Positions 43,885 to 61,814 of a stretch of DNA of 64,000 bases are shown here, in pieces. The notes under the pieces were generated by a model, which ran no database searches, was not told the origin of the DNA, and saw only the letters and a program-made list of their open reading frames with translations. Made by a program: the position numbers and the translations under genes. Where the stretch lies: NCBI GenBank assembly GCA_028277605.1, contig JANQFZ010000027.1, positions 235 through 64,234 on the forward strand, written 5' to 3'. Within the stretch, counting starts at the first letter, position 1. Each line of letters opens with the position of its first letter. Origin of the DNA: Vallitaleaceae bacterium. GTDB lineage: Bacteria; Bacillota; Clostridia; Lachnospirales; Vallitaleaceae.

Positions 43885-44328
43885 TCAATGCTGTAGTTGA
43901 CTTTTTAATAAATCCGTTGTTGTAGTAGTTATACTATCAACAAGATTTACAAATAACCTCATTAAGTTTTGAAGAGCTGTTGCTAAGTCCATATCTTGAA
44001 TGTCTTCGCAGAATAGAAAGAAAAGTTCACCAAAGGTTTTCTGATCCTTTTCTCTTCTTCGTAGCCATTCAATCATAATGTAACGGGTAAAAACAATGGT
44101 TGTATGGCTAATCATCATATCATAACTACGACCTTGAAACTTGCTGACGAGTTTCATTAAGGACTTCGTAGCTTTGAAGAATACTTCAATACTCCATCGA
44201 TTTCCATATCTACGAACGATCTCCTCATTAGACAAGGAGCAATCGGTACTAAGAATTACCAACCAGTCTTGCTTCTTATTACGGTTTTTGACATATACTA
44301 ACTTAATGGGTAATTGGATTGTCAACAC
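43885..44328 (-). pseudogene. IS4-family DDE transposase, C-terminal fragment
   Basis: 147 aa containing the Y(2)R(3)E(6)K signature YGNRWSIEVFFKATK. The N-terminal about 300 aa are missing. Confidence 0.7.
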
Positions 44329-44331
44329 TAT

Positions 44332-45075: not shown

Positions 45076-45243
45076 TGGATTTATAGGTTGTTTTCAAGTG
45101 GGAAAGTTGAGTTAATAAATTAATGAAGATGGCGGCAGCAACTAAAATTCTACATTTTTCTACTTTGTATATATGATATAGTATTATAGTGAATTTATAA
45201 AATACTTAAAGGAGGAAACAAAGCAAAAAAATTATTTAGTTTA

Positions 45244-45933
45244 TTGTTAATTACTGTAATGATTATGGGTATGAGTACGAGTATTTTTGCATCAAGTGAG
45301 GTGAATCTAAATGATGAACTTCAAACGTACATAGAAAAAAATATGGTTACAAAGTCATATAATGCTGATAATGCGATTTACACAGTAACAATTGATGATG
45401 CAAATGAATTGGAAAAAATACATAATGGCAGTAATGATAAGCTTATTTCTAGAACAATTACTTACATAATTCTAAAGGAAGAAGATACATTTAAAGAAGA
45501 AACTAATATATCTAAGAATTTGACTCGTTGGGGTGATGATTGGACAATAGGAGGTTGGGAATATATAAGTAATAGATGGTATACTGAATCTGAAGGAACT
45601 CCATATAGAGTTGAAGGGGCAGCTGATATGACTGTTAAAATAACAACAGAATCAAGTTATCAACTGTTTGGTGAAGGTAGTGGAAAGGTTAAAGGCATAG
45701 TTGAGATAAAAATTGGCGGAAAAATTGATGAGAAAAAAAAGACAGAATGGTCAATTCATGTTCAAGTAGATGACGGATATTATAGAGACTTAGAAGTTTG
45801 GGAATACAAATCTAGATATGATTTTAATATCTATAAAAATGATGAATTATATGCAACTGATGGTATAGCATATAAACCTAATGGAGGCAAAAAATTAACA
45901 AATGATTTATATAAGAAAAGTGAAAATAAATAG
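45244..45933 (+). CDS. Hypothetical secreted protein (orphan, IS-flanked)
   Basis: 229-aa ORF with a signal-peptide-like N-terminus ..ITVMIMGMSTSIFASSE. An AAAGGAGG RBS lies at 45208-45215, but there is no ATG/GTG between it and the TTG at 45244. Confidence 0.4.
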   Translation: MLITVMIMGMSTSIFASSEVNLNDELQTYIEKNMVTKSYNADNAIYTVTIDDANELEKIHNGSNDKLISRTITYIILKEEDTFKEETNISKNLTRWGDDWTIGGWEYISNRWYTESEGTPYRVEGAADMTVKITTESSYQLFGEGSGKVKGIVEIKIGGKIDEKKKTEWSIHVQVDDGYYRDLEVWEYKSRYDFNIYKNDELYATDGIAYKPNGGKKLTNDLYKKSENK

Positions 45934-46625: not shown

Positions 46626-48635
46626 TTAGTATCGATTTAAGTTCGCTACTTGATTAAACAATTTTTCATAGGCTGATTGTTTTCTATAAAAGACTGGAGG
46701 ATAGCCTATGGGGGCTGGTATGGTATGTTCACCGCCCTTATATAAGTGTCCAGTCCAGAAGTGTACCCACTCATCTTCTGGTAAGTATACTGACCATGTA
46801 TTCTTGTTTTGTTCGTAAATCGGTGCTACTAATACTTCGGAACCAAAGAGATACTGATAAGCAATATCATAGGTTTTTGGGTCATTTTCATAATGCATAA
46901 ATAGTGGCCTTTGCATGGGCAACCCTTGGTTGGATGCCTCTTTTATTAAGCGTTCTATATAAGGCTTTAGAGCGATATGTATCTCTACCATTTTAGCTAA
47001 ATGTTTCATGGTTTCATCATCATGATAGTACTGAAAGTTCTGCTCGGGTCGATTGCCTTCATGCGTACGCATAAAGGATGTGAAAACACTCATTTCCGCC
47101 CAGCGTTGAAACAATTCCTTTGTTCGTATATTACCATGTAGACTTGTATAGCCTCCTATATCACTATGATGATATGGATTACCTATGATACCCGATGACA
47201 AAGCTCCTGGTATAACAGAAGCTAACCCATCATGAAGTGAAAAATCAACGGACTGATCGCCTGCCCATAAGGCTGTACAGTACTTTTGAGAACTATACCC
47301 ACCAGCTCGCATAAAGTAGAATATTTCTCCCAGTTTACCAGCTTCTTTGACAGCTTCATAATTACACTGCGCCCACAATACGGGCCATGCATTATGCATA
47401 ATCTTAGCATCTACCCCATTGTATAGGCAACAGTCCGTGGGCAAGTACTCACCGAAATCTGCCATCCATCCATCTAAACCAAAATCAATAAGATTCTTCT
47501 TAATAACTTCTTTATACCAGCCAAAAGCTTCAGGATTCGTTAAATCAACAATACCACAGTCAAATTCCCCAAAATCTACATCATAGTCTTCTCCATCATT
47601 TGTTTTTGCTAAATAATTTCTTTCTTTAGCTTCAGCATATAAAGAGCCATCGTTCACAACAAATGAAGTTAAATACCCCATAAATCGGATACCTTTTTCT
47701 TTTAACTCAAATATAACCTTATCTAAGTCTGGATAACGGTCTGGGTTCCATTCCCAGTTCCATCTTAACCGCTTTCCAAAAGAGGTTCTATTAATACCAA
47801 CCCAATCTTGACACCATAATCCACTCACTTGAATACCTGCTTGCTTGGCATCTTCTAAATAACCCAGAACCTTTTCGGTTCCTCCTTGAACCCCCAGCAT
47901 AACACCATCTCTGATCCAGCTTGGTAATTCTGGTAATCTACCGATATACTCTGTTAGTTTCTTTGTTAACTCTATATAGCTGCTTGCTGATTCAACAATT
48001 ACAGTTTGTGGTATATCCCAAGTTTGTAGCTCGTGAAAATCAGGATGTCTAAAGTCAAAATCAGCATAAGCTGTAGACTCTACGTGACACCAGTACTTTC
48101 TTGTTGAGATAAAAGTAGGTTCTGGATAGTTCGTTGTATAGTAGTCTCCACCCGCTCTATCTCTTGTATCTGCCAGCCAAGTGGTATAGGTGGTTTTGTC
48201 TCGTCCAACACCAGGTTCTGATGTCCACAAGGGGAAATGACGTCCACGTAGATTAAAGTAAGACATCTGCTCACCACATCCATACACCTTCTCATCCTTC
48301 TCAGCAAAAAATCTTAGCCACAAACGATTAATTTTTTTGTTTTTTTGTATAAAATCTATCAATAATCGTTCGTTTTCCTCTCTAACTTTCATAACAATTA
48401 AGGATTGTTCATCTGCTCCATGCAGCTTAAATTTAATACTATTCTCTTCTACACTAGCATAGGTTAATGGAAGGCGTTCAATAAGATAGTCTTCAATCTT
48501 GTAGTTCCCTCGATACATATCAATGCTTTCTTCCCCATATCCAATATATAGAGCTGGCTGCTCCACCGTATGACATAGTATTAACTTATCTTGTAAATAC
48601 AATGAAAAGCCTTGATCCAGTTCCACTATTTTCAT
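46626..48635 (-). CDS. yihQ: GH31 glycosidase, YihQ-type sulfoquinovosidase
   Basis: 669 aa. Long collinear similarity (from memory) to E. coli YihQ: YGCGEQ.SYF.LRG..FPLWTSE.GVGR, QDW.GI.RTSFGKRLRWNW, GWMADFGEYLPTD, WAGDQ, HHSDIGGYT. It is the last gene of the operon. Confidence 0.8.
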   Translation of the reverse strand: MKIVELDQGFSLYLQDKLILCHTVEQPALYIGYGEESIDMYRGNYKIEDYLIERLPLTYASVEENSIKFKLHGADEQSLIVMKVREENERLLIDFIQKNKKINRLWLRFFAEKDEKVYGCGEQMSYFNLRGRHFPLWTSEPGVGRDKTTYTTWLADTRDRAGGDYYTTNYPEPTFISTRKYWCHVESTAYADFDFRHPDFHELQTWDIPQTVIVESASSYIELTKKLTEYIGRLPELPSWIRDGVMLGVQGGTEKVLGYLEDAKQAGIQVSGLWCQDWVGINRTSFGKRLRWNWEWNPDRYPDLDKVIFELKEKGIRFMGYLTSFVVNDGSLYAEAKERNYLAKTNDGEDYDVDFGEFDCGIVDLTNPEAFGWYKEVIKKNLIDFGLDGWMADFGEYLPTDCCLYNGVDAKIMHNAWPVLWAQCNYEAVKEAGKLGEIFYFMRAGGYSSQKYCTALWAGDQSVDFSLHDGLASVIPGALSSGIIGNPYHHSDIGGYTSLHGNIRTKELFQRWAEMSVFTSFMRTHEGNRPEQNFQYYHDDETMKHLAKMVEIHIALKPYIERLIKEASNQGLPMQRPLFMHYENDPKTYDIAYQYLFGSEVLVAPIYEQNKNTWSVYLPEDEWVHFWTGHLYKGGEHTIPAPIGYPPVFYRKQSAYEKLFNQVANLNRY

Positions 48636-48670
48636 TATTTCACCTCTTATTCATGTCATTCTTATGATAA

Positions 48671-49486
48671 TTAACCTTTTACAGCCCCTGCTGACATACC
48701 TGCTATGAAATACCGTTGGAAAAACAGATACATCAATACCATAGGAATTGAGGCTATAGCAACACCTGTGAAAAGCATTTGATAGTCAATAACATACTGT
48801 CCTTGAAAATCTAGTAATGCCAAAGGAACTGTTTTTTTAGCCCTTTTTGTAATAAATAATAAAGGATATAATAAATCATTCCAATGCATAACAAACAAAA
48901 ATATGCCTGTTGCTGATAATGAAGGTAATGAAAGCGGCATAACAACTCTTGAATAGATCTTCCATTCATTTGCCCCATCTACTTTAGAAGCACCGAACAA
49001 TTCCTTGTGAATCGACCGCATAAAGCCTGTTAAAATAAAAACTGCCACTGGTAATGTAGATGCAATATTAGCAATAATTAAGCCTGTTAATTTATTTTTA
49101 AGACCAAAAGAAGATATCAGATTATATAGCGGTATCATATTTACTTGAGGAGGAATCATCATACCTGCTGCAAACAAAGCAAAAATAATAATTCCTAGAA
49201 TTTTATTGCATCGAATAATAAAATAAGCAGCTAAACTTCCAAAAAATAGAGTTAGAAAAACAGAGGTTAACGTGGTTTGAATACTGTTTAGAAAATAAAC
49301 AACAAACTTTTCTTCTACAAATATTTTATAGTAGTTATCAAGAGAAAAGTTTCTAGGGAGTCCAGCAATATTCTGAAATAACTCTGTACCATCTTTGAAG
49401 GTAGCAAAGAAAATGATAGATAGAGGTAATAGAATAGCCAGTGCGTATAAGCATAATACAATATTTCTTATAATTTTTTTATTCAT
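48671..49486 (-). CDS. CUT1 sugar ABC transporter permease
   Basis: 271 aa, 6 TM, with EAA-like loop HKELFGASKVDGANEW. Confidence 0.85.
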   Translation of the reverse strand: MNKKIIRNIVLCLYALAILLPLSIIFFATFKDGTELFQNIAGLPRNFSLDNYYKIFVEEKFVVYFLNSIQTTLTSVFLTLFFGSLAAYFIIRCNKILGIIIFALFAAGMMIPPQVNMIPLYNLISSFGLKNKLTGLIIANIASTLPVAVFILTGFMRSIHKELFGASKVDGANEWKIYSRVVMPLSLPSLSATGIFLFVMHWNDLLYPLLFITKRAKKTVPLALLDFQGQYVIDYQMLFTGVAIASIPMVLMYLFFQRYFIAGMSAGAVKG

Positions 49487-49498
49487 CTCATTTCCTCC

Positions 49499-50371
49499 CT
49501 AATTTGTTTCATATCTGTCAACCAGCTTAAATTGTAAAAATGTGATTGCGCCAATAATAACTAAAAAGATGATTGATTGTGCGGCTGCATAACCAAATTT
49601 GTTGCTTCTGAAGGCAACATTATAGATATTGGTAGCAATGATTTCTGTCGAGTAATTTGGACCCCCACGAGTCATAGTATAGATAAGATCAAAGGCTTTG
49701 AAGGTTTGAATCGTCGTGTAAGCAACAACAATGGTAGCCGCTGGTGCTATCATAGGCCATGTTACCCTTCTAAATGTTTGCAAAGCACTTGCCCCTTCTA
49801 TCTTTGCTACCTCGTAAAACTGCTTAGGAATGGCTTGCAAGCCTGCAACAAAGATAACAATCATCTGCCCGACATGAAACCATGCTTTAACAACTGCAAT
49901 GGAGTAAATAGCAATGGACTTATCTCCTAACCAGTCTTGTATCATCCATTCTAATCCAAGTGATTTTAACAATTGGTCAATAGGTCCAATATTAGGTGCA
50001 TATAAAAAAGTCCAAATGAAACCTACAGATACAGATGCTAATATAGTTGGGAAAAAATACAAGGCTCTAAAAAACACGTTGCTTTTAGTATTCTTTATTA
50101 ATAATAATGCTAAACCTAAGGAAAATAAAAATTGTAGTATAGAAGCAGATAACGTAAATTTTACGTTATTAGTTAATGACTTGATAAATATCGTATCATT
50201 GGTGAACAAATTAATGAAGTTTTTTAATCCTACAAAATTAAATGCAGGAGAAACCCCATCCCAATCAGTAATAGAATAAAAAAGAGATAATACGGTAGGA
50301 TATACATAAAATACACCATATATCAATAGGGCAGGTATAATGAAAAACCCTATTTTTTTGCTTGCCCTCAT
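49499..50371 (-). CDS. CUT1 sugar ABC transporter permease
   Basis: 290 aa, 6 TM, with EAA-like loop IPKQFYEVAKIEGASAL. Confidence 0.85.
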   Translation of the reverse strand: MRASKKIGFFIIPALLIYGVFYVYPTVLSLFYSITDWDGVSPAFNFVGLKNFINLFTNDTIFIKSLTNNVKFTLSASILQFLFSLGLALLLIKNTKSNVFFRALYFFPTILASVSVGFIWTFLYAPNIGPIDQLLKSLGLEWMIQDWLGDKSIAIYSIAVVKAWFHVGQMIVIFVAGLQAIPKQFYEVAKIEGASALQTFRRVTWPMIAPAATIVVAYTTIQTFKAFDLIYTMTRGGPNYSTEIIATNIYNVAFRSNKFGYAAAQSIIFLVIIGAITFLQFKLVDRYETN

Positions 50372-50632
50372 TAAGCCTCACTCCTTGAATGTAGAATATA
50401 GTGCAGGATCAAAATAATATAGACTTGATATAACGAAGAGAATTTCATCCTTTATGAAATTCTCTTCCTTATTAAATTCTGTATAGGTAGAACTAAATAA
50501 TTAGTAGACCCATTATTTAGAACCCTTCAACCTATAAGCTCAAAACATATAATGAACTTATCAATTGGTAATCATGTAAATAAAAGTTCATTATATACAG
50601 GTAACTATCTACGTATAACTATTTACTTATAA

Positions 50633-51955
50633 CTATCTACTTAATATTTCATCAATTAATTTTTGAGCATTGTCAGCAGCTTTTTGTGGTTCAGTACCGC
50701 TGATAACATCTTGAATAGAACCTAAAACAGCATTCTGAACATCTTGATCCGTGATAAAGAAACGAGGCTGTGTTCGTGTTTTTCTTGGTCCCCAAACTTC
50801 TCCAATTTCCATTAGTTCTTTAGACGTATATTCGACATCTTTCAAAGTAAGCTGTTGTCCTGTTGTGTTAGCATAATAGCTAGCTATTTCTTTCTCTGTT
50901 AAGAAATCAATAAACATAGCAGCTTCTTCTTTATGATTGGATTTCTTATTAATTCCCAATAAGAACGTTGCGTTATGAATACCATCCCAAACCTTTTCAC
51001 CTTCTGAAGCGGGGTTTGGAGAAATGATACCTAATTCTAAATCTGGATTCTTTGCTAGGATACCAGAGATAGCATAGGAACCTGTTGCAAGCATAGCTGC
51101 TTCTTCACTAGCTATCATATTAATACCATCTTGATGCTTGAGTGAGTTAGCACTGGTGTTAAAGTAACCCTTGCTGTTTAACTCATTGAAGTGAGCGAGA
51201 GTTTTAACCCACCAATCTTCGGTTATTTTTGCTTCACCACTTAAGACTCTTGCCCAAATGCCTTCATCGGGCTCTAGGTTCATCATCATACTATTCATAA
51301 ACTGACCTGGTCCAATATCTCCACCAGGGAATGCAATTGGTACATAGCCAGCATCCTTTAATTTTTGACAGGCATCTAACCAGCTATCCCAATCTTTCAT
51401 AGCTCCTTCAAAATCAACCCCAGCTTTTTCAAAGGCTTTTTTATTGTAAACTGGCTGATTATAAACCATTTGGAAAGGCACAGCGTATTGAACGCCGTCT
51501 TCTAGACCAGCTGTAATCAATGCTTCATTAAACTTAGATACAAAGCTTTGGTTGGTGATATCATCAAATAAATCACCTTTACGAATGGTTTGGAATTGAG
51601 CTCCTGGGAAGGATGTGAAGACATCGCCTGCTTCACCATCTTGAAGTAAAGTATGTGCAGTTGATACATATTGTTCGGATGTATAAATGGTTTGTTCTAC
51701 ATCAATATGAGGATATTTTTCATTAAATCTTGAAATAATTTCATCAAATGCATCTTTGTCTTCTCCACGCCAATGAACAAAGCTTAGAGTTACTTTCTTT
51801 TTGTTCTGATCTTGGTTTTGATTATCTTGGTTATTATCCTTGTCGTTATTATCAGTTACATTGGTATTTTCTGAAGTATCCGCCTTTTTCCCACATGCTG
51901 CTAATACAGGAATAACAAGCATTACAGCAAGTAATAACGCTAAAACTTTTTTCAT
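50633..51955 (-). CDS. Extracellular sugar-binding lipoprotein (candidate sulfoquinovose / SQ-glycerol binding)
   Basis: 440 aa with a lipobox LAAC and an N/D/Q-rich linker, belonging to the family-1 SBPs. Confidence 0.75.
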   Translation of the reverse strand: MKKVLALLLAVMLVIPVLAACGKKADTSENTNVTDNNDKDNNQDNQNQDQNKKKVTLSFVHWRGEDKDAFDEIISRFNEKYPHIDVEQTIYTSEQYVSTAHTLLQDGEAGDVFTSFPGAQFQTIRKGDLFDDITNQSFVSKFNEALITAGLEDGVQYAVPFQMVYNQPVYNKKAFEKAGVDFEGAMKDWDSWLDACQKLKDAGYVPIAFPGGDIGPGQFMNSMMMNLEPDEGIWARVLSGEAKITEDWWVKTLAHFNELNSKGYFNTSANSLKHQDGINMIASEEAAMLATGSYAISGILAKNPDLELGIISPNPASEGEKVWDGIHNATFLLGINKKSNHKEEAAMFIDFLTEKEIASYYANTTGQQLTLKDVEYTSKELMEIGEVWGPRKTRTQPRFFITDQDVQNAVLGSIQDVISGTEPQKAADNAQKLIDEILSR

Positions 51956-52051
51956 GAATATCTCCTCCTTAAATTTATCATAAATGTCCTAAGACATTTT
52001 TTACAAAAACTTTATGAGATTTAATCATTACTAAGTCAAGAAATACATGAA

Positions 52052-52723
52052 CTAAGCAATAGAAATAGTTGTATTACTACCAACAATTCCAATGTGCGCT
52101 TGTTGATGAATCATCCTTAAGTTCTCTGGATGTACTAAAAGCCATTTATTTCTCTTAAACAAGCGATAATCTTCTTCGCATTTTCTTAGAAAATCTTTGC
52201 TAATCTCACAATTGGTACCTCTAGGCAATACAATAATACTCTTAAATCCCTCCTCGCATACTTTACATGGTGCTAAGTGTAAAGTTGTTGAATAGATTTC
52301 TACTGCTGTTCCTCTAGGAATAAAAACGCCTTTAATAAGCTCTGATGAATATTGGTTGTTCTTAATATCCCAGACATGACCTAATAAAAGAACCAAATCT
52401 GTAATAGCAATAAGTATTTCACTTGATTTATGATGCTCTAACCCATTAAGACTTGAATTCCGACCATTGCAAAAACCAATCTGAACTTCCATACCCCCAT
52501 AGAATCTTTGCATTAATGCTTTATGTACATGAGTCTTTTCCATTTCTTCAATAGATGACTCATAGACAGTACCCTGCTCTGGAATATTGGTCTTATTAAC
52601 CATATAGCTTATTATCTCTTCAAAATCATATCCACTAACAACATTGACATATGAAGCTGTCTCAGGTTGTTCGACATGAAATATCTCCACATGTGGATTA
52701 TTTTTCTTTATAGTTTTATACAT
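52052..52723 (-). CDS. DUF4867-like cupin protein (candidate sulfoquinovose isomerase)
   Basis: 223 aa, beta-rich and cupin-like. It is the first gene of the importer/GH31 operon. Confidence 0.55.
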   Translation of the reverse strand: MYKTIKKNNPHVEIFHVEQPETASYVNVVSGYDFEEIISYMVNKTNIPEQGTVYESSIEEMEKTHVHKALMQRFYGGMEVQIGFCNGRNSSLNGLEHHKSSEILIAITDLVLLLGHVWDIKNNQYSSELIKGVFIPRGTAVEIYSTTLHLAPCKVCEEGFKSIIVLPRGTNCEISKDFLRKCEEDYRLFKRNKWLLVHPENLRMIHQQAHIGIVGSNTTISIA

Positions 52724-52872
52724 CCTGTTACACCACCATTACTCATTTTAAAACTTAAGTTATCTAAACTTCTGAACAAGCAAAACAACTCTTAAAATTA
52801 AGGGATTAAAAGATTAAACATGGATAATTGACACTAAATTAAGCCGCTTTATGATCTCATCACTAAGCTTAA

Positions 52873-52894
52873 TTAATTAATCCTTTTAATTATT
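52873..52894. promoter_or_regulatory. Candidate operator (22-nt motif TTAATTAATCCTTTTAATTATT)
   Basis: Exact 22-nt repeat of 61974-61995. Lies upstream of the DUF4867 operon. Confidence 0.45.
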
Positions 52895-52960
52895 AACCAT
52901 AGTTATATTCTACAACTAACCATCTCAAATGTCAATATCCATTTAATGTTTTATTTATTT

Positions 52961-52979
52961 ATTAAAAGGATTAACTAAT
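52961..52979. promoter_or_regulatory. Candidate operator, inverted copy (ATTAAAAGGATTAACTAAT)
   Basis: Its reverse complement contains TTAATCCTTTTAAT, the core of the 22-nt motif. Confidence 0.35.
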
Positions 52980-53046
52980 ATAGTTCGTCATTATGCCCAA
53001 AACCATTACTTTAATTCGCTTGTTATTTGAAAAAATAGGCGCACCT

Positions 53047-53102
53047 CACCTATTATCTTCTGTGGTAAGTGTACACCTATTTATGTAGTATCCATTAAGT
53101 AT
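53047..53102 (-). terminator. Rho-independent terminator after the rpiB-like gene
   Basis: The minus-strand RNA pairs AAAUAGGUGUAC with GUGCGCCUAUUU (12 bp including 2 G-U pairs, plus an inner 6-bp stem), followed by U6. Confidence 0.55.
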
Positions 53103-53111
53103 TCATAAAGC

Positions 53112-53585
53112 TTATTTAAAATTCTCTTCTTCTATTCTTTGAACCTCTTTAAAGGCTTGAGATAAGAAATCGTGTTTATGCTCTAAGCCTTCTGTAAATC
53201 CTGTATTCAACCATCTTTCTACCATATCGATGGCTTTTTGGGGAGCAATAATCCAGCCTCCCATTGTTAGAACATTTGCCTGATTAACAACTGAACACAT
53301 TTTTGATGAATAGCTGCCTTCTACAACCGCTGCATAAACTCCTTTAAACTTATTTGCCAATATGTTCATACCCATGCCCGTTCCACAAAACAGCATCCCT
53401 TTTTCATATTCTCCTGAAGCAACCCTTTTGGCTACTTTTGGTGCAACTTCATAATATGCCTTAAAATCGTTAATATCTAAGAGTCCTACATCTTCCACTT
53501 CGTATCCAATTTCTAACAAATACTCTTTAACCGCTTCCTTTAAGGTAAATCCTGATTTATCGGAACCCAGAATTATTTTCTTCAT
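53112..53585 (-). CDS. RpiB/LacA/LacB-family sugar(-phosphate) isomerase (candidate 4-deoxy-4-sulfoerythrose isomerase)
   Basis: 157 aa with the catalytic-Cys loop FCGTGMGM and NVLTMGG. Confidence 0.7.
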   Translation of the reverse strand: MKKIILGSDKSGFTLKEAVKEYLLEIGYEVEDVGLLDINDFKAYYEVAPKVAKRVASGEYEKGMLFCGTGMGMNILANKFKGVYAAVVEGSYSSKMCSVVNQANVLTMGGWIIAPQKAIDMVERWLNTGFTEGLEHKHDFLSQAFKEVQRIEEENFK

Positions 53586-53617
53586 AGTATAACCCTTCCT
53601 CTCCTGTCAGATTAACT

Positions 53618-54562
53618 TTAGCCTTTTTTACCAATGACTTCTTTAACCGCTTCTATAATATGTTTGGCTTTCATCTCATATTTGTTCATTAAGAAATCCA
53701 TTTTACCTACTTCACCAAAATGATCCTTCACACCAATCCTCTTCATTGGTACAGGATAATTCTCGGTTAGCACTTCAGCAACAGCACTACCAAGACCATT
53801 AATAATATTATGATTCTCAGCAGTTACCACAGCACCTGTATCCTTGGCGGCTTGTATAACCGCCTCTTTATCTAATGGCTTAACCGTATGAATATTAAGA
53901 ACCTTAACCGATATACCCTCTTCTTTTAGTTGGTTAGCAGCATCTAATGATTCTTTTACCATTAACCCAGTAGCCATAATCACCACATCACTGCCTTCTT
54001 TTAACTGCTCTGCCTTGCACCAGTTAAAGGTATACTTCTCATCAAAAATCTGCTCTGTTTTCTTTCTGAACATTCTTATATAAACCGGTCCATAATGATT
54101 AATGATGTGAGGCATTGCTTGTTTTAACTGAACACTATCCACAGGTTCAAATATAACCATATTAGGAATAGAGCGCATGATACCCACATCTTCAAAGCTC
54201 ATATGTGTACCACCATTTAGTTCAGCAGCTACACCTGGGTCACTGCCCATCATCTTAACGTTCAAACCTGCATAAGCAACAGAAATGGTGATTTGATCCA
54301 AACACCTTCGGGTAGCAAAAGGTGTAAAAGTATGGGTAAAAGGTATTTTACCAAATGCAGATAGTCCAGAAGCAACTCCCATCATGTTAGCTTCAGCAAT
54401 CCCTACATCTATCGTTCTTTCAGGGAATTTCTCTTTGAAGGGGAGCGACTTTGCTGCTTTCATTAAATCAGCTTCTACTAAAACAATACGCTCATCTTTT
54501 TCTGCCATTTCTATTAATGCTTCAGTATACACTTCTCTAACTTCTCTTTGTTCTAATGCCAT
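53618..54562 (-). CDS. Transketolase, C-terminal (pyrimidine-binding) subunit
   Basis: 314 aa. Split-transketolase B subunit (DVGIAEANMMG, FEPVD), adjacent to the A subunit. Confidence 0.85.
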   Translation of the reverse strand: MALEQREVREVYTEALIEMAEKDERIVLVEADLMKAAKSLPFKEKFPERTIDVGIAEANMMGVASGLSAFGKIPFTHTFTPFATRRCLDQITISVAYAGLNVKMMGSDPGVAAELNGGTHMSFEDVGIMRSIPNMVIFEPVDSVQLKQAMPHIINHYGPVYIRMFRKKTEQIFDEKYTFNWCKAEQLKEGSDVVIMATGLMVKESLDAANQLKEEGISVKVLNIHTVKPLDKEAVIQAAKDTGAVVTAENHNIINGLGSAVAEVLTENYPVPMKRIGVKDHFGEVGKMDFLMNKYEMKAKHIIEAVKEVIGKKG

Positions 54563-54563
54563 A

Positions 54564-55412
54564 CTAAATCACCTCTCCTTCATCAAGCATGGCGACAGCT
54601 TTTTTCCACATCTCTTCTGTAACAGGCATATTATGAGAGCCAACTAAGCCTTCAGCAAAATACGCACCTTTTCCTTTAATGGTATTGAGTATAATCATAG
54701 ATGGACGACCTTTTTCATCATCTGCTCTTTCAATACTATCTAATATTTGTTGGATATCATGACCGTCAATCACCTGCACATGCCAGCCAAACGCTTTCCA
54801 TTTTAAATCCAAAGGCTCCAAACCATTAACCTCTTGGGTATAGCCATCAATCTGCATCTTGTTGTAATCGACAAAAGCAATCACATTGTCTAGTTGCTGA
54901 CTACCAGCAAGCATAGCAGCCTCCCATATCTGTCCTTCTTGACTTTCTCCATCTCCAATTAAAGTAAATATTCTACAGGGGTTTTTATCTATTTTTGCCC
55001 CTAATGCCATACCTATAGCAGCTGAAAACCCTTGTGCAAGTGAACCTGCTGTCATATCTACTCCAGGTGTTAAGATTTTATCACAATGACTTGGGAGGTT
55101 CGTATTAGAACGATTTAAAGTATCTAAAAGCTGAATATCAAAATAACCTCTATGTGCCAGCGCAGCGTAAAGAGCTGGTCCACCATGTCCTTTAGATAGG
55201 ATAAACCTATCTCTTTCCTGCCAGTCTTTATTACTTGGATCGATTTTCATGACATCAAAATAAAGAGCAGATAACACATCACAAATAGATAAACAGCCGC
55301 CAATATGACCAACGCCTAATTTTCCTATCATTTCAATGGTTGATTTTCTTAGTTCCACAGCCTTAGCTTCAAGCTGTTGGATGCGTTCTTTTTGATTCGT
55401 TATTTCCGCCAT
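54564..55412 (-). CDS. Transketolase, N-terminal (ThDP-binding) subunit
   Basis: 282 aa with GHIGG, SKGHGGPA, and the ThDP motif GDGESQEG..N. Confidence 0.85.
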   Translation of the reverse strand: MAEITNQKERIQQLEAKAVELRKSTIEMIGKLGVGHIGGCLSICDVLSALYFDVMKIDPSNKDWQERDRFILSKGHGGPALYAALAHRGYFDIQLLDTLNRSNTNLPSHCDKILTPGVDMTAGSLAQGFSAAIGMALGAKIDKNPCRIFTLIGDGESQEGQIWEAAMLAGSQQLDNVIAFVDYNKMQIDGYTQEVNGLEPLDLKWKAFGWHVQVIDGHDIQQILDSIERADDEKGRPSMIILNTIKGKGAYFAEGLVGSHNMPVTEEMWKKAVAMLDEGEVI

Positions 55413-55498
55413 GATATAACCACCTTTCTTATTTTTGTTATGTAAATTTTGTGTAAAAAGTATATCACATACTCAGTGTTTTAAGCTATTCACACTCT

Positions 55499-56953
55499 TT
55501 AGTAAATATGGGTTAGGATTCCTATAACATAAATGGTTGCAGCTATTATAACCGATGAGATTACCGTTAATACAGCACCTGCTTTTGCCATATCCTTGAT
55601 AGAAAAATAGCCTGCTGAATAAGGAATGACATTTGTAGGTGTGGATGTAACTAATATGAAAGCTAAAGACGAGGTTAACGCTGCTGGCAATGTAATGGAT
55701 AGAGGATCCAACCCTAAGCTTTGAGCCAGTGCAATAATAATTGGTATAATGATAGTTGCTGTAACTGTATTACTTGAAAAAGCTATTTTTAATAAGGAAA
55801 CAATAAACACAATAGCAAATATCTGTATGAATGGATGTATACCGCCTATCTGACCTAAAAGCACTACAGAAAGCCACATAGCAGCCCCTGAGTTATAGAG
55901 CATCATGCCAAGGGATATACCTGAAACCACTAAGATAATACCACTCCAAGAAATATCTGGTTCAATTTCTTTCCATTTAATTTTTGATACACCAGGAAAG
56001 AAAAATAGGGAAGATGTTAATAAAACAGGCATTGAAATTGGGATCCCGATGCCTAACCATCTTTCAAAAAGAGGTGACGTCAGCCATAAAGCTACCGTTA
56101 ATAAAAATATAACAACGGTCTTTTTTTCTTCCAAGTTCATCTTTGGAAGCTTCAAATACTCTTCTCTTAATTGTTCTTTTGTTTTAGATAGTTTTTTCAT
56201 TTCTGGCTTGAAAAATAATAATAAAATCCCCCATGTTGGAAGCAGCAATAAAAGAGCTGAGGGTACTCCAAAGATCATCCAGTCTAGGAAATTAAGATTA
56301 ACTCCTGCCATATCCTTTAAAAATCCAATAGCCAAAGGATTAGGTCCACATCCAGCAGGCGTTCCTATACCACCAACGATAGGTCCCCATGCACATGCAA
56401 TCATCAGCGCCTTTCCAAAGTTGCTTTTTAATGGAACTACTTTTTCTTCTTCTAAGATACTTTTTCCAAGAGGCATCAGCATTGCTGCAACTGCCATATC
56501 TGTTACCCACATAGAAAGTATTGCGCCAACAAGTAAAAATCCTAGTATGATAAAATAAGTATTGTTGCCTGTTTTTGATAGAATAAACATAGAAATGCGC
56601 TTGCCTAATCCCGACCGTGTAATATAGGCAGATAAAATCAGAACACCTATAAAAAAGACAATGATATCATTACCAAAGCCAGCTTTAACAACAGCCTTAA
56701 AGGAGTCTACATTAAAGAGCGCCATCATAAAAACACCAAGTAAGCCTGTTATATGAAAGGGCAGCGCTTCTGTCATCCATAGAATCAGCGCAAATATGAG
56801 TACAGCCATGGCCGTCTGACCAGCTCTAGTTAAAGTCGCCTCTCCAGCCTGAGCTATAGATTGAGGTATGGATATCGCATTAAATATAAGTGCAATGGCA
56901 AGTGCCAGTAAAATAAAAATGATATTTTTTCTTACATTAACACCTTTTGTCAT
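55499..56953 (-). CDS. DASS/SLC13-family anion permease (candidate organosulfonate exporter)
   Basis: About 484 aa, many TM segments, with two SNT/TPTN-type hairpin-tip motifs (FSSNTVTA, TSTPTNVIP). I prefer the ATG at 56953 (GGAGG 8 nt upstream). Confidence 0.7.
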   Translation of the reverse strand: MTKGVNVRKNIIFILLALAIALIFNAISIPQSIAQAGEATLTRAGQTAMAVLIFALILWMTEALPFHITGLLGVFMMALFNVDSFKAVVKAGFGNDIIVFFIGVLILSAYITRSGLGKRISMFILSKTGNNTYFIILGFLLVGAILSMWVTDMAVAAMLMPLGKSILEEEKVVPLKSNFGKALMIACAWGPIVGGIGTPAGCGPNPLAIGFLKDMAGVNLNFLDWMIFGVPSALLLLLPTWGILLLFFKPEMKKLSKTKEQLREEYLKLPKMNLEEKKTVVIFLLTVALWLTSPLFERWLGIGIPISMPVLLTSSLFFFPGVSKIKWKEIEPDISWSGIILVVSGISLGMMLYNSGAAMWLSVVLLGQIGGIHPFIQIFAIVFIVSLLKIAFSSNTVTATIIIPIIIALAQSLGLDPLSITLPAALTSSLAFILVTSTPTNVIPYSAGYFSIKDMAKAGAVLTVISSVIIAATIYVIGILTHIY

Positions 56954-57845
56954 CAAAGCGTTCCTCCTTAATGCATCTATTTAAAAGCTGTCCAACCAAA
57001 CTAGGTTTCTTAGCTACTAACGCACCTGCTGATTCTAAAGCCTTGATTTTGTCTTCTACAGAACCTTTACCTCCCGATACAATAGCACCTGCATGACCCA
57101 TTCTTTTACCTTTTGGTGCTGTTCTTCCGCCAAGAAAGGCTACTAAAGGCTTTGTAAAGGTGCCATTTTGAATTGCTTCTGCAACTTCTTCTTCCATGGT
57201 TCCCCCTAGTTCACCTATAATGACAACCGCATCGGTTTCTTCGTCCGCTTGATAAAAGGGTAGCATTTCTGCAAATCGTGTACCGGGTACTGGGTCACCC
57301 CCTACTCCAATTAATGTAGAGACACCATACCCTGTCTTTACTACCATAGCTGTTACTTCATTGGTTAAAGAACCGCTTCTAGTCATGATACCAATTCTAC
57401 CTGGCTTATAAACCCGTTTTATCCAATAGGGAAAGAATCCCATCATAGCTTTACCCGGTGATATAACTCCAGATGTATTGCCACCTACGACATAAGCACC
57501 TGCTTTTTTTGCTTCTTGCCTTATCTGTATGGCATCATGTAAGGGTATACCATCCGCAACGGTTACAATTTTCTTAACCCCTGAATCTAATGCTTCCAAA
57601 ACAGCATCCTTTGTAAATCTAGGTGGAACAAATAACATAGATGCATCCACATCATAGGTGTTAACCGCTTGTCTAACCGTATTAAAAACAGGTATGGATT
57701 CCACTTGTTGTCCTGCTTTTCCCGGCGTAACACCAGCAACAATCTGTGTACCCATCTCCTTCATATGCTTCGTCCAATAGCTTCCTTCCTTGCCTGTTAT
57801 CCCTTGAATGAGTACCTTTGTACTCCGCTCAATAAAAATACTCAT
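56937..57845 (-). CDS. ADP-forming acyl-CoA ligase, alpha subunit (SucD-like)
   Basis: 302 aa with CoA-binding GITGKEG and the phosphohistidine loop MGHAGAIV. ATGA overlap with the beta subunit gene. Confidence 0.8.
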   Translation of the reverse strand: MSIFIERSTKVLIQGITGKEGSYWTKHMKEMGTQIVAGVTPGKAGQQVESIPVFNTVRQAVNTYDVDASMLFVPPRFTKDAVLEALDSGVKKIVTVADGIPLHDAIQIRQEAKKAGAYVVGGNTSGVISPGKAMMGFFPYWIKRVYKPGRIGIMTRSGSLTNEVTAMVVKTGYGVSTLIGVGGDPVPGTRFAEMLPFYQADEETDAVVIIGELGGTMEEEVAEAIQNGTFTKPLVAFLGGRTAPKGKRMGHAGAIVSGGKGSVEDKIKALESAGALVAKKPSLVGQLLNRCIKEERFDDKRC

Positions 57846-58969
57846 GATACCATCCCTCCTTGAGCAATTTCAACCGCTCGTTGAACCGCCTCTTCTGTGT
57901 CAAACAAGCATTCTAGACCAGCTTCTTGCAGCAATTCGACTGCTTTTTCTTCATTAGTACCTCTGATACAGGCAACAATGGGTCTATCTGGCTTCAATTT
58001 TGCAATAGCATTCACCACACCTTCTGCCATCACATCTGCTCTAGCAATGGTACCGAATGTCACGATTAATATAACTTTAGATTCATTCTTAAGACATAAG
58101 GACATGGCTTTTTCAGCTTTTCTATAGTTAGGTCCGCCAAATTCTAAGTAATTGGCAACTGTTCCACCTGCATAATGAATGAGATCATAGACCGTAGTAG
58201 TCAAGCCAGCACCTGCACACATAAGGCTGATATCACCATCAAATTGTATATAAGGAATCCCTTCTAAGGCTGCCTCATATTCAACTTCATTATCATAATA
58301 AGCGCTTGTTTTTTCATAGGTAGTTTGTCTGTAGGATGCATTATCATCAATAATTAGCTTACCATCTCCAGCTACCACATGTCCCTCTTGAGTTATAAAC
58401 AGCGGATTGATTTCTACTAATTCTGCATCATACTTTCTAAAAACTGTATATAATTTCTGCACTATAGGTATCACCTGTTTAGCATAAGGTGTATCTAAAC
58501 CAAGATTGTAAGCAATATTTCTACTATTAAAGCCTTGGATACCTAAATTAATATCGATTGGCTCTTTGATTATTTTCTCAGGCGAAGTCACAGCTAAGGC
58601 TTCAATATCAATTCCCCCTTCTTCACAAGCGATGATAAGGGCTTTGGAATCAACCGGATCCACAGTTACAGATAAATAAAGCTCTTTTTCTATATTGACT
58701 GCACGCTCAACCAATATCTGTTTAACATGATACGCACTATTAAAGATCTCCTCAGCCTTATCTTTTGCTTCATCCAAAGTTTCCACCAACTGTATAAGTC
58801 CTGCTTTACCTCTTCCGCCTTGAAGTACCTGTGATTTGAGTACACATGGTAGACCAACCTGACGAACTGCATCATCTAATTGGGATAGTTCATTGATGAG
58901 ATGTCCCTCAGGAATAGGAATGCCAGCTTCTTTGAACACTTCTTTTGCTTGATATTCAAATAATTTCAT
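57842..58969 (-). CDS. ADP-forming acyl-CoA ligase, beta subunit (SucC-like ATP-grasp)
   Basis: MKLFEYQAKEVFKEAGIPIP N-terminus. I prefer the ATG at 58969 (GGAGGAG RBS) over 59017. Confidence 0.8.
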   Translation of the reverse strand: MKLFEYQAKEVFKEAGIPIPEGHLINELSQLDDAVRQVGLPCVLKSQVLQGGRGKAGLIQLVETLDEAKDKAEEIFNSAYHVKQILVERAVNIEKELYLSVTVDPVDSKALIIACEEGGIDIEALAVTSPEKIIKEPIDINLGIQGFNSRNIAYNLGLDTPYAKQVIPIVQKLYTVFRKYDAELVEINPLFITQEGHVVAGDGKLIIDDNASYRQTTYEKTSAYYDNEVEYEAALEGIPYIQFDGDISLMCAGAGLTTTVYDLIHYAGGTVANYLEFGGPNYRKAEKAMSLCLKNESKVILIVTFGTIARADVMAEGVVNAIAKLKPDRPIVACIRGTNEEKAVELLQEAGLECLFDTEEAVQRAVEIAQGGMVS

Positions 58970-58983
58970 GGGTGATTCTCCTC

Positions 58984-60390
58984 CTATTTTCCATATTGCT
59001 TCCAATACTCTCCCCACATGTCTTCATCTGTGGGCTTAACTGGTGGTATTGGATATGAAACCCAAGTAATATTTAGAAAATGTTTATAATTGATATTTTC
59101 TGTTGTAATATTACCACCCCATGTACCACAACCTAATGTTACAGTTGATGGCATACCATTGAAAAAATTCCCTCCATTAGCTGGTGCTTGTGGCTGTCTC
59201 ACCATAATACGGCTTGTTTTCATCTCCATGGCAAGCTGATGTATATAAGCATCATTAAACGTATGTATACCACAGGAATGACCTGTTCCAGCAACGGTTG
59301 TAAGCTTGATAAGAATATCCAATCCTTCTTCAAACGTTGAATATTTCCATAGGGTTAATACAGGAGATAGTTTTTCTTCAGCAAACGGGTCAGAATCAAC
59401 TGGCAGTTTTCCTTCAACCATGAGCATGGTTGTGTTGTTAGGAATCATTAATCCTGCATCAGTTGCAATCACTTGAGCTGACTTAGCTACAATCTTTGCA
59501 TTTAATGCGATATGACCCTTTTTATTAGGAACCCACATCCATTTTTGCAGACGTGTTTTTTCAGTTGTATCACATAAATAAGCATCCTTTTGCTTAAAGG
59601 TTTCGATAACTTTATCATAAATGCTTTCATGAACAATAATAGAATTTTCTGATGAACAAGAGGTTGCATGATCGAAGATTTTGCTTATAGTTACTTTTTG
59701 AACAGCATCTTCAACATCTGCATCTTCTGCGATGATTTGTACTGAGTTGCCAGGTCCAACACCATAGGCAGGTGTACCGCTAGAGTAAGCCGCTTTAACC
59801 ATGGCATTTCCACCTGTAGCAATGACCAAATCCACTTGATTCATTAAAAGATTCGTCGCTTCTATTGAGGGGATTTCTACAATTTGTATTAAATCCTCAG
59901 GAGCGCCAACCTTCTTCAACCCTTTTCTCATAAAATCTACAGCCAATTTAGAACTTACTTTAGCTTTTGGGTGAGGAGCAAAAATAACGGCATTTCTTCC
60001 TTTTAGTATAGATAAAGCATTACTTGCTGGTGTCGCTGTGGGATTGGTTACGGGTGTTAGAGCACCAACTACCCCAACAGGCTTAGCATACTTAAATATT
60101 TTTTTCTCATCATCCTTCTCAATAAGACCTACAGACTTGACATTCTTAATATCGTTTAAGACCCCCATAACCTTAACTTTGTGTTTGGTAATTTTGTGTT
60201 CTACCAGCCCCATACCTGTTTCTTCAACCGCTTTTTTAGCAAGCTGTTCAATGCTATCATCCTTATAAACCTGCCAGCCTACCGCTAGGCAAACCTCATC
60301 GATTTGCTCCTGTGTGTACCCTTCGATTTGCTTCTGAGCTTTTCTTGCTCTTTGCAATAAATCTTCAATCATTTTTTTGCTTTCTTCCAT
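58984..60390 (-). CDS. CoA-acylating aldehyde dehydrogenase (EutE/PduP-like; candidate sulfoacetaldehyde dehydrogenase)
   Basis: 468 aa of the ALDH superfamily, with catalytic Cys context FDHATSCSSENS. It is the first gene of the operon and has a GGAGG RBS. Confidence 0.75.
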   Translation of the reverse strand: MEESKKMIEDLLQRARKAQKQIEGYTQEQIDEVCLAVGWQVYKDDSIEQLAKKAVEETGMGLVEHKITKHKVKVMGVLNDIKNVKSVGLIEKDDEKKIFKYAKPVGVVGALTPVTNPTATPASNALSILKGRNAVIFAPHPKAKVSSKLAVDFMRKGLKKVGAPEDLIQIVEIPSIEATNLLMNQVDLVIATGGNAMVKAAYSSGTPAYGVGPGNSVQIIAEDADVEDAVQKVTISKIFDHATSCSSENSIIVHESIYDKVIETFKQKDAYLCDTTEKTRLQKWMWVPNKKGHIALNAKIVAKSAQVIATDAGLMIPNNTTMLMVEGKLPVDSDPFAEEKLSPVLTLWKYSTFEEGLDILIKLTTVAGTGHSCGIHTFNDAYIHQLAMEMKTSRIMVRQPQAPANGGNFFNGMPSTVTLGCGTWGGNITTENINYKHFLNITWVSYPIPPVKPTDEDMWGEYWKQYGK

Positions 60391-60553
60391 AAGAACACCT
60401 CCATATGAATTATAAGCTTAATTTATAGCTCAACTCTCCCATGGTATTATCTGAATAGGAATGGGAAAGAGCATAGACGCCATGAATACTTTTACTATTC
60501 TCTAAGTATAAAAGAATAACTAATTCACTATCGTATAAGTTTATTGGTATTTA

Positions 60554-60571
60554 TTAAACTTTTTAATTAAT
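60554..60571. promoter_or_regulatory. Degenerate copy of the candidate operator (TTAAACTTTTTAATTAAT)
   Basis: Matches TTAATCCTTTTAATTATT at 15 of 18 positions. Lies upstream of the aldehyde-dehydrogenase operon. Confidence 0.3.
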
Positions 60572-60593
60572 AGCTTAAAAAAATAATAGCCAA

Positions 60594-61814
60594 TTATGAG
60601 ATAGCTGTTGCACCTGTTTTATAAAATAATTCTTTGACAACTAAGACAATCCCACCAATACAACGTCTATTATCCAAAACACTACTTTCTATTTTATCCA
60701 TAATGTTATCAACGTGCGCCAGTTTATTAATTTCTTGTATGAGCTTATCTAAGTAACTCTTGTTTCTAAAAAAATCACTATATATAATGATCTTATGTGG
60801 ATCATACAATCTTATCATATTCACAATACCTATTCCAAAGTATCTCCATATTTGGTTGACTTTTTTTACAATCTCCACTTCTCCTAGGTCATAACCTTCA
60901 ATAATGCTAGCTGTATTAATTGCCGATTGGTTACCATCAACCAACTTATGTAGAATCGGATAACACTCCTGTGTAAATTCATCTTTAATGGTTTGTTTCA
61001 AAGTTCTGATAGATGCAACCGTCTCAAGGCATCCTCTCTGTCCACATTTACACTCTTTCCCATTCGGTACAATAATCATATGTCCTAATTCTCCAGCATT
61101 ATTATAAGAGCCTTTATATATTTCTTTATTGGTTATAGCTGCCGATCCAATACCAGGTCCATATTTAATAAAAACCATATTCTCTATATTTTTATGAGAA
61201 GTTAACTCCATCTCTGCTAAAGCTAAGGCTCTAACGTTATTCTCAACAACCACTGGTATATTCAATTCCTTTGATAGTATGGACTGAATGTCGACTTCAT
61301 GTTTCCATAAACCATAGGCACGTTTACTAAGACCTTTTTTACTATCTACAATACCTACAATACCAACTCCAATACCTAGAACATCACTTTTGGAGATATT
61401 CAAGTTCCACAGCATAGACATACATATATCTACGATTATTTTCATAATATCTTCAACTGACATGCCATTAATTTCTTTATCCATATATTCTATAATTTCA
61501 TATTTTAAGTTTGAAATACCTATGCTTAGCGAATTGGGTTCAATATTGACACCAATAACATATTTGTAGTCCTTTTTTAATTCTATAAATATTTTCTTTC
61601 TTCCGACTCTCATCGTATCTTCAATTTGACCGCTTTCTCTTATACAGCCATCCTGAATCATTTCGTTAACAAGTATTGTAACTGCGGCAGGTGTTAGTTT
61701 AATCTTTTCAGCAATATCTTTCCTTGACTTTTTCCCTTTTTTTAGCTGATTTAAGATTAAAGTTCTATTATTTATCTTAACATCACTCATGTTGACACCT
61801 GATGTTCTTCTCAT
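60594..61814 (-). CDS. ROK family transcriptional regulator
   Basis: N-terminal wHTH (SRKDIAEKIKLTPAAVTILVNEM) and a ROK domain with zinc motif GHM..CKCGQRGCLE. The start could instead be the ATG at 61790. Confidence 0.8.
   Translation of the reverse strand: MRRTSGVNMSDVKINNRTLILNQLKKGKKSRKDIAEKIKLTPAAVTILVNEMIQDGCIRESGQIEDTMRVGRKKIFIELKKDYKYVIGVNIEPNSLSIGISNLKYEIIEYMDKEINGMSVEDIMKIIVDICMSMLWNLNISKSDVLGIGVGIVGIVDSKKGLSKRAYGLWKHEVDIQSILSKELNIPVVVENNVRALALAEMELTSHKNIENMVFIKYGPGIGSAAITNKEIYKGSYNNAGELGHMIIVPNGKECKCGQRGCLETVASIRTLKQTIKDEFTQECYPILHKLVDGNQSAINTASIIEGYDLGEVEIVKKVNQIWRYFGIGIVNMIRLYDPHKIIIYSDFFRNKSYLDKLIQEINKLAHVDNIMDKIESSVLDNRRCIGGIVLVVKELFYKTGATAIS

Follow-up and report, generated by a model that had tools for sequence, protein, structure and literature searches.

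A putative oxidative, ATP-yielding end of sulfoquinovose degradation with a candidate DASS-family sulfoacetate exporter in a Vallitaleaceae bacterium

The stretch of DNA analysed here, 64,000 nucleotides (nt) from a Vallitaleaceae bacterium and hereafter called the window, carries on its minus strand a module of four co-oriented and translationally coupled genes (55499-60390; all coordinates are those of the whole window), encoding an aldehyde dehydrogenase (ALDH), the beta and alpha subunits of a SucCD-like ligase, and a permease of the DASS (SLC13) family. The module is enclosed by a single co-directional cluster belonging to the sulfoglycolytic transketolase route (sulfo-TK pathway) for degradation of sulfoquinovose (SQ), located at 46626-61814 on the same strand. 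The best explanation of the whole, which we hold with moderate confidence, is that the module forms an oxidative, ATP-yielding end of the sulfo-TK pathway, with the DASS protein exporting sulfoacetate. As to its parts, the two enzymes are, by analogy with characterised homologues, very probably an SqwD-type ALDH and an SqwKL-type ligase; sulfoacetate is the probable substrate of the DASS protein; and export is its reasonably likely net direction. Gene content, motifs, family membership and synteny were determined here, and the enzyme activities are those described in the literature on homologues.

Sulfoquinovose is produced at about 10 Pg per year, and the kind of sulfonate that a primary degrader releases determines the secondary degraders that follow and the amount of H2S. 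The enzyme part of this pathway end is already published (Chu et al. 2023, as described in papers that cite it). The window mainly adds one more carrier of the pathway, a Vallitalea-like Clostridium, and, as a useful addition, a concrete and widely conserved candidate for the sulfoacetate exporter.

Gene organization of the module

The four genes of the module are as follows.

58984..60390, minus strand: predicted CoA-acylating sulfoacetaldehyde dehydrogenase (SqwD/SauS-type), 468 aa (PF00171, NF047625)
57842..58969, minus strand: ligase beta subunit (ATP-grasp, SucC-like) of a putative ADP-forming sulfoacetate-CoA ligase, 375 aa (ATP-grasp_2, Ligase_CoA)
56937..57845, minus strand: ligase alpha subunit, SucD-like (CoA_binding, Ligase_CoA)
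55499..56953, minus strand: DASS/SLC13 permease, 484 aa, candidate sulfoacetate carrier for efflux (PF00939, TIGR00785)

All four open reading frames (ORFs), first proposed in a reading of the bare sequence (the original prediction), were found at these positions on the minus strand. The ligase beta gene starts with ATG 58969, located 14 nt past the ALDH stop behind the ribosome-binding site (RBS) GGAGGAG; GTG 59017, listed by program as the start, was rejected. The ligase beta and alpha genes overlap by 4 nt. The overlap between the DASS gene and the ligase alpha stop, also given in the original prediction, is exactly 17 nt for ATG 56953, and the RBS of the DASS gene, AAGGAGG, sits within the 3' end of the ligase alpha gene. 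A scan for promoters and terminators gave promoter-like counts no higher than those in shuffled sequences, and the operon boundaries are therefore drawn from gene spacing and overlaps only.

The gene set of the sulfo-TK pathway consists of SqvD, SqwGH, SqwI and YihQ (PMC9594981), and the cluster holds all of these in one place: SqwGH, an RpiB-type SqwI, a DUF4867 SqvD and a GH31 YihQ. Domain scans of the cluster (46626-61814) and of about 20 other ORFs of the window detected neither an alcohol dehydrogenase (ADH)/reductase nor a TauE/SafE protein (PF01925), bearing out the original prediction that the cluster is devoid of a reductase, and no C-S lyase, sulfoacetaldehyde reductase (TauF/SqwF), IseG or Xsc was detected in the same set. 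Because sulfoacetaldehyde is formed by the cluster and no enzyme encoded there would reduce it or break its C-S bond, sulfoacetate would be the end product that must leave the cell.

Aldehyde dehydrogenase and two-subunit ligase

The ALDH belongs to PF00171 (E 9e-27). Its best NCBIfam model is NF047625 (AcylSulfactDhSauS, acylating sulfoacetaldehyde dehydrogenase SauS), which aligned end to end with 543.9 bits and leads the next model by 90 bits. The original prediction had described the enzyme as EutE/PduP-like and CoA-acylating; the acylating character holds, while the likeness to EutE/PduP was imprecise, the score being 544 bits for the SauS model and 231 bits for the EutE-type model. The best match in the PDB is 8cei, the CoA-acylating succinate-semialdehyde dehydrogenase SucD of Clostridium kluyveri (E 2e-116). 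The motif FDHATSCSSENS occupies residues 239-250, and the cysteine that had been proposed as catalytic within it, Cys245, aligns with the cysteine of the CSSE motif of 8cei (CSSE codons at 59647-59658). The ALDH thus has both the fold of the superfamily and a catalytic cysteine of the acylating branch (AdhE-N/SucD-like). Its homologues are widespread (66-76% identity) and carry the JGI label "sulfoacetaldehyde dehydrogenase". The NAD(P)+- and CoA-dependent activity on sulfoacetaldehyde is known for the homologues SqwD and SauS (PMC12890257, PMC10413351).

The ligase shows the two-subunit architecture of succinyl-CoA synthetase (SCS), the alpha subunit having the phosphohistidine loop and the beta subunit the ATP-grasp domain. 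The beta subunit matched ATP-grasp_2 (E 2e-54) and also Ligase_CoA, and scored 342.7 bits against sucCoAbeta, under the cut-off of 375.55. The alpha subunit has the phosphohistidine loop of the solved SCS alpha 2yv1 without any change (GKRMGHAGAIV), so that the loop MGHAGAIV noted in the original prediction is indeed retained (57078-57101), with His251 as the phosphohistidine. Residues 305-312 of the beta subunit read FGTIARAD (58034-58057), a sequence shared by 73 of the 74 extracted ligase beta homologues, the remaining one having FGTIAKAD, and the SCS beta of Thermus aquaticus (3ufx) has FGGITRAD at this position. We take this position to be one that contacts the acid substrate in the structure of SCS with succinate, and FGTIARAD is a candidate specificity determinant for sulfoacetate. 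Together with the beta score below the SCS cut-off, it would be in keeping with a ligase subfamily that has an acid specificity of its own.

DASS carrier

The DASS protein was assigned to its family by PF00939 (E 4e-58; 198 bits against a cut-off of 27) and TIGR00785 (243.5 bits; cut-off 198.6). Among solved DASS proteins its closest relative is VcINDY (E 1e-42), with SLC13 at about 1e-42, and the only exchanger-type structure matched was DiT1 (E 4e-5). In the alignment with VcINDY, the motif of the second hairpin (HPout) is canonical, S394-N395-T396, with K389 ahead of it (codons for K389 to T396 at 55766-55789). The first hairpin (HPin) reads S147-M-W-V-T151-D152-M153 (56495-56515), with T-D-M at the SNT position; across 87 family members the pattern is T-[N/D/A]-[M/T], the middle residue being N in 55, D in 28 and A in 4. 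Of the two SNT motifs that form the DASS signature (PMC7553777), the window protein thus carries only that of HPout, and its membership in the family stands. The original prediction of an SLC13/DASS permease with two SNT-type motifs was right as to the family and wrong as to the second motif; the sequence STPTNV is the loop of transmembrane segment (TM) 10, equivalent to ATPPNA of VcINDY, and contains no SNT motif.

In VcINDY, one carboxylate is bound by N151 and T152, which also contribute to the Na1 site, and T373 is a functionally critical ligand of Na2 (PMC5413979). Of the Na+ ligands of VcINDY, S146 and N378 have retained counterparts in the window protein, N151 is replaced by D, and T373 is replaced by I, as it is by I, V or L in all 87 family members. 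Adjoining the T373 position, the inserted Lys389 is invariant (87/87); in more distant relatives, to as low as about 36% identity, the residue is K or H, and canonical cotransporter-like sequences have T-E. With T-D-M in HPin, the loss of T373 and the invariant Lys389, the carrier is a DASS protein by family with a non-canonical binding and ion site. Our hypothesis is that Na+ coupling may be reduced, given that the first SNT motif and the threonine of Na2 are lost and a lysine is invariant. The simplest model would be a cotransporter that is run outward by the product gradient.

Conserved gene order in related genomes

More than 1300 homologues of the DASS protein were found; the best 120 are 63-81% identical to it, and the named ones among them come from Spirochaetota and Clostridia. 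A DASS-seeded scan of species-representative genomes gave 80 loci from about 80 species, and the synteny was counted in those 68 DASS-seeded loci whose upstream sequence extends over 2.3 kb or more, including four contexts from a contig look-up. The ligase beta and alpha genes lie directly upstream of the DASS gene, in the same order, in 64 of the 68 loci. In the same set (Spirochaetota, Clostridia), an ALDH gene was present in 51 and a transketolase gene in 46. The four lone DASS loci, with a Pat-like acetyltransferase, an SNF transporter and FeoB as neighbours, were uninformative.

In the reverse test, four contig look-ups were seeded with the ALDH, and the DASS gene was present in three of the four contexts, i.e., in Vallitalea pronyensis and in two large metagenomic contigs. 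In V. pronyensis, a cultured isolate with a complete genome (CP058649, 3762588-3783994) that is at hand for experiments, the gene order from ROK to RpiB is identical to that of the window. Most of the shared proteins are 72-80% identical between the two, with 67% for ligase beta and 54% for DUF4867, and V. pronyensis has an extra ORF of 438 aa, Fucose_iso_C-like, before the DUF4867 gene, without a counterpart in the window. A scan of metagenomes with a back-translated ALDH pattern returned only generic acetaldehyde dehydrogenases of 37-42% identity, and was of no use for co-occurrence.

The fourth ALDH context (L168-L170; homologue P0227, found in 32 index blocks and representing a widespread lineage) has the ALDH and the ligase and no DASS. 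In its stead, a 413-aa carrier with CitMHS/MatC_N domains, unrelated to the DASS protein (BLASTP E 0.83), is located between RpiB and ALDH. MatC is a family of carriers for malonate, of which sulfoacetate is the sulfonate isostere; this replacement therefore fits a carrier for sulfoacetate.

A neighbour census was made in about 48 related sulfo-TK loci and covered 157 further ORFs. The 25 families seen most often there, out of 66 and 73 with matches, did not include iron-dependent ADH (Fe-ADH). Of 69 short ORFs neighbouring related loci, 2 matched TauE, and one neighbouring ORF, in a single related locus, matched the malonate/Na+ symporter subunit MadM. The synteny in 64 of the 68 loci, the MatC-type replacement and the neighbour census together lead to the proposal that the substrate of the carrier is the acid of the ligase, sulfoacetate, and the tie between the DASS protein and the sulfoacetate module, which the original prediction had drawn from the window, finds strong support in the first two of these.

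Other genes of the cluster and its surroundings

The cluster is arranged in the order ROK, ALDH, ligase beta, ligase alpha, DASS, split transketolase, RpiB/LacAB isomerase, DUF4867, solute-binding protein (SBP) and two permeases of an ATP-binding cassette (ABC) importer, and GH31. The genes outside the four-gene module are as follows.

60594..61814, minus strand: ROK-family transcriptional regulator with an N-terminal winged helix-turn-helix (PF00480, E 2e-44, and HTH_24)
54564-55412, minus strand: split transketolase, SqwG (Transketolase_N)
53618-54562, minus strand: split transketolase, SqwH (Transket_pyr and Transketolase_C)
53112..53585, minus strand: RpiB/LacAB-family isomerase, SqwI-type sulfoerythrose isomerase (PF02502, E 2e-40; role per PMC9594981)
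52052..52723, minus strand: DUF4867 protein, SqvD-type sulfoquinovose isomerase (PF16161, E 1e-69; role per PMC9594981)
48671..51955, minus strand: ABC importer, with the SBP at 50633-51955 and the permeases at 49499-50371 and 48671-49486 (from the translations, with SBP_bac_1 and BPD_transp_1 as annotations of the homologues of related loci)
46626..48635, minus strand: GH31 sulfoquinovosidase, YihQ equivalog (NF007746, i.e., PRK10426, and GH31 domains)

The GH31 protein scored 1004.9 bits against NF007746 (PRK10426), which we take to be the model of E. coli YihQ, with a cut-off of 553. The ROK gene borders the cluster in many related loci, and the ROK protein is likely the cluster's own regulator. 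The RpiB and DUF4867 genes are 388 nt apart, and in the gap a promoter-like site, TTGACA-17-TAGAAT, with 11 of 12 consensus matches, was detected on the minus strand at 52907-52935. It points to the isomerase, ABC and YihQ genes as a second transcription unit, promoter-like counts overall being not above those in shuffles.

Beyond the GH31 end of the cluster, a truncated integrase-core ORF (rve and HTH_21; 44563-45075, minus strand) lies together with small unassigned ORFs at 42631-45933, and hints at a mobile-element scar at the cluster edge. An aldose 1-epimerase gene (29576-30622, plus strand), located about 16 kb away from the cluster, is a candidate SQ mutarotase only.

Proposed pathway

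The genes can be arranged into the following scheme. SQ would enter through the ABC system, with YihQ releasing it from glycosides, and SqvD, the split transketolase SqwGH and SqwI would convert it into two xylulose-5-phosphate and sulfoacetaldehyde. The SqwD-type ALDH, acting through Cys245, would then turn sulfoacetaldehyde, NAD+ and CoA into sulfoacetyl-CoA, from which the SqwKL-type ligase, via His251 of alpha, would form sulfoacetate, ATP and CoA at the expense of ADP and Pi. The DASS protein, translated off the same message right behind ligase alpha, would take the dianionic, non-metabolisable sulfoacetate out of the cell.

The steps from sulfoacetaldehyde via sulfoacetyl-CoA to sulfoacetate plus ATP, as put forward in the original prediction, are well supported by homology (the SauS model and the SauCD/SqwKL-type ligase) and by the sulfo-TK context. 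The sulfoacetate-forming variant from earlier work that the same prediction mentioned does exist (Chu et al. 2023, according to citing papers).

Alternatives to sulfoacetate export

Several observations weigh against the export of sulfoacetate formed by oxidation. The nearest characterised relatives of the DASS protein, VcINDY and SLC13, are Na+-driven importers, and in Bilophila wadsworthia the carrier SauI, of the Na:sulfate-symporter family and encoded beside the SauS and SauCD genes, has been proposed to import sulfoacetate (PMC10413351). The 543.9 bits of the ALDH remain under the equivalog cut-off of NF047625 (600 bits), a near-miss rather than an exclusion, and ligase alpha lies above the cut-off of the generic SCS-alpha model (351 versus 336 bits). 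SqwD and SqwKL of Acholeplasma and SauI of Bilophila are likened here to the window proteins on the basis of their description in the literature. About seven sulfo-TK loci of spirochaetes (L017, L022, L035, L041, L050, L069 and L073), running in the order transketolase, RpiB, ligase beta, ligase alpha and DASS, have no ALDH gene within about 10 kb, and no alternative ALDH was detected among the neighbouring ORFs scanned in five such loci.

The trio of ligase beta, ligase alpha and DASS, finally, also exists away from transketolase genes. In three metagenome-assembled genomes (MAGs) of Oscillospiraceae (L053, L054, L059) the trio follows a molybdenum (Mo) enzyme of the xanthine dehydrogenase (XDH) family (MoCoBD_2, FAD_binding_5, Fer2_2) and the TRAP component DctM, and in three spirochaete MAGs (L012, L019, L060) the upstream neighbour is an amidohydrolase, in L019 divergent and beyond a GntR regulator. 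The ligases of these trios keep FGTIARAD. In a neighbour-joining tree, the DASS proteins of the amidohydrolase contexts interleave with transketolase-linked ones, and the three of the XDH contexts form a clade of their own, sister to a transketolase-linked Oscillospiraceae sequence. The substrate of carrier and ligase may therefore not be sulfoacetate in every context. The amidohydrolase and Mo-enzyme contexts may mark other sulfoacetate-related pathways.

The first alternative is that the module works in the reductive, catabolic direction as in Bilophila, i.e., external sulfoacetate is taken up by a SauI-like DASS protein and activated by the ligase at the cost of ATP, and the resulting sulfoacetyl-CoA is reduced by the ALDH to sulfoacetaldehyde. 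The homologous SauCD and SauS do work in this way next to a proposed importer of the same symporter family (PMC10413351), the closest solved DASS proteins are Na+-coupled importers, and the ligase-DASS pair is known outside sulfo-TK clusters too. The window, however, has no TauF/SqwF, IseG or Xsc in the cluster or the scanned ORFs, Fe-ADH is not among the 25 most frequent neighbour families in the approximately 48 related loci, and the module is placed inside an SQ regulon, with the regulator gene on one side and the transketolase genes on the other. As this regulon itself yields sulfoacetaldehyde, reduction would feed a dead end, and we regard import and reduction as unlikely.

Another possibility is that the DASS protein acts as a precursor/product antiporter like CitT or TtdT, exchanging incoming SQ, or another anion, for outgoing sulfoacetate. 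The DASS family includes exchangers in which the Na+ ions are replaced by basic side chains (PMC7553777), and the window protein shows such a side chain in Lys389, invariant at or next to the position where the Na2 threonine is lost. Against this, the cluster has its own ABC importer, the protein groups by sequence with the cotransporters (VcINDY, E 1e-42) and reaches the exchanger-type DiT1 with an E of only 4e-5, and no equivalent of the arginine in the first hairpin was found by alignment, leaving an antiporter rather improbable.

Ordinary succinate metabolism (an acylating succinate-semialdehyde dehydrogenase, SCS and a C4-dicarboxylate DASS protein) that lies beside SQ genes by chance is very improbable: C. 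kluyveri SucD is the best solved homologue of the ALDH, ligase alpha clears the NCBIfam cut-off for SCS-alpha and DASS members typically carry C4-dicarboxylates (PMC5413979), but the linkage to a split transketolase recurs in Spirochaetota and Clostridia (46 of 68 loci), the SauS model gives the highest ALDH score, FGTIARAD (73/74) stands in place of the FGGITRAD of 3ufx in a beta subunit that scores under the SCS cut-off, the first carboxylate-binding SNT motif of the DASS protein is altered, and the homologue SauCD is inactive on succinate (PMC10413351).

Beyond the export of sulfoacetate by the window protein, we tentatively consider a wider proposal, for which the chances are below even: the whole DASS clade could serve the oxidative sulfo-TK branch as its dedicated carrier for sulfoacetate efflux and would then be the first DASS-C-type exporter of a sulfonate-carboxylate, with Lys389 as a possible fixed surrogate for Na+. 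In this view the reworked ion sites would loosen or change the coupling to Na+, making efflux feasible and possibly generating an ion-motive force. If this proposal is true, the spread of the ligase-DASS cassette may mark further pathways that form or use sulfoacetate.

Novelty of the exporter assignment

No DASS exporter for sulfoacetate was found in the searchable literature, the primary text of Chu et al. (2023) apart, and only the report on SauI as an importer came up (PMC10413351). The original prediction that a DASS exporter would be a new assignment thus holds in part within this literature, and is tempered by SauI: the novelty of the transporter is modest because SauI has already been proposed as a sulfoacetate carrier, in the direction of import. 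By domain scan and synteny, the window protein resembles SauI as defined in that report (UniRef50_G1UPV2) in family and neighbouring genes, and the C-S cleavage genes IseG and Xsc that would mark the context of SauI were not detected in the window's cluster. When SauI of Bilophila was sought, the best 120 DASS homologues were of the sulfo-TK type, and no names of Desulfovibrionaceae appeared in the look-ups of representatives and clusters. The ligase beta, ligase alpha and DASS genes make up a three-gene marker, which could sharpen metagenomic calls of sulfoacetate-producing sulfoglycolysis, and confirmation would widen the known range of substrates and directions in the medically studied SLC13/DASS family.

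Comparison with known systems

In the isethionate-forming sulfo-TK pathway of Clostridium sp. MSTE9, described by Liu et al. in 2021, sulfoacetaldehyde is reportedly reduced by the NADH-dependent SqwF, and the product is said to be exported by the sulfite/sulfonate transporter SqwE. The upstream half (SqvD, SqwGH, SqwI, YihQ and the importer) is common to this pathway and the window. The MSTE9 pathway ends with reduction to isethionate and SqwE, whereas the end in the window would be oxidation with a gain of ATP, followed by the DASS protein, and the cluster has neither Fe-ADH nor TauE.

The system most alike is that of Acholeplasma (Chu et al. 2023, AEM 89:e00617-23). According to the papers that cite this work, some sulfo-TK clusters are without SqwF and SqwE, and recombinant SqwD and SqwKL of Acholeplasma sp. 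convert sulfoacetaldehyde into sulfoacetate with formation of ATP (PMC12890257, PMC11659671, PMC11489063). As described there, both systems have an acylating dehydrogenase and a two-subunit ADP-forming ligase inside a cluster of SqwGH, SqwI, SqvD and YihQ genes, and both are without the reductase SqwF and without SqwE. They differ in the host, that of the window being a low-GC Clostridia relative of V. pronyensis, and in the carrier: in what these three reviews relate of the Acholeplasma variant no exporter is named, whereas the cluster of the window has the DASS gene.

The cluster of B. wadsworthia (SauS, SauCD, SauI and SauXYZ) shares with the window the enzyme families, a carrier of the Na:sulfate-symporter family and the intermediates sulfoacetyl-CoA and sulfoacetaldehyde (PMC10413351). 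Its SauCD and SauS, called close homologues of the sulfo-TK enzymes by the authors, from the laboratory that also described the Acholeplasma variant, run the reaction backwards, with ATP-consuming activation and reduction and then TauF and IseG; the window, in contrast, has no TauF, IseG or TTT transporter. SauCD shows specificity for sulfoacetate: its activity reaches 20% with 3-sulfopropanoate and 7% with malonate, and the remaining acids assayed, succinate among them, gave no activity (PMC10413351). In Enterococcus gilvus, HpfX and HpfYZ likewise combine an acylating ALDH with an ADP-forming, SCS-like ligase to give a sulfo-carboxylate and ATP, with a putative exporter in the cluster; their substrate, however, is one carbon longer (3-sulfopropionate), HpfYZ is inactive on sulfoacetate and the exporter is of the TauE type (PMC11489063).

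For the carrier itself, the comparison is with VcINDY and SLC13. The fold family is the same, and conservation extends to the SNT motif of the second hairpin and to the P-x-N loops of TM5 and TM10. The clade of the window protein differs in T-[N/D/A]-[M/T] of HPin, the replacement of T373 by I, V or L, the inserted Lys389 and the replacement of P201 by Gly. VcINDY and SLC13 take up C4-dicarboxylates, whereas the direction proposed for the DASS protein of the window is the efflux of a sulfonate-carboxylate.

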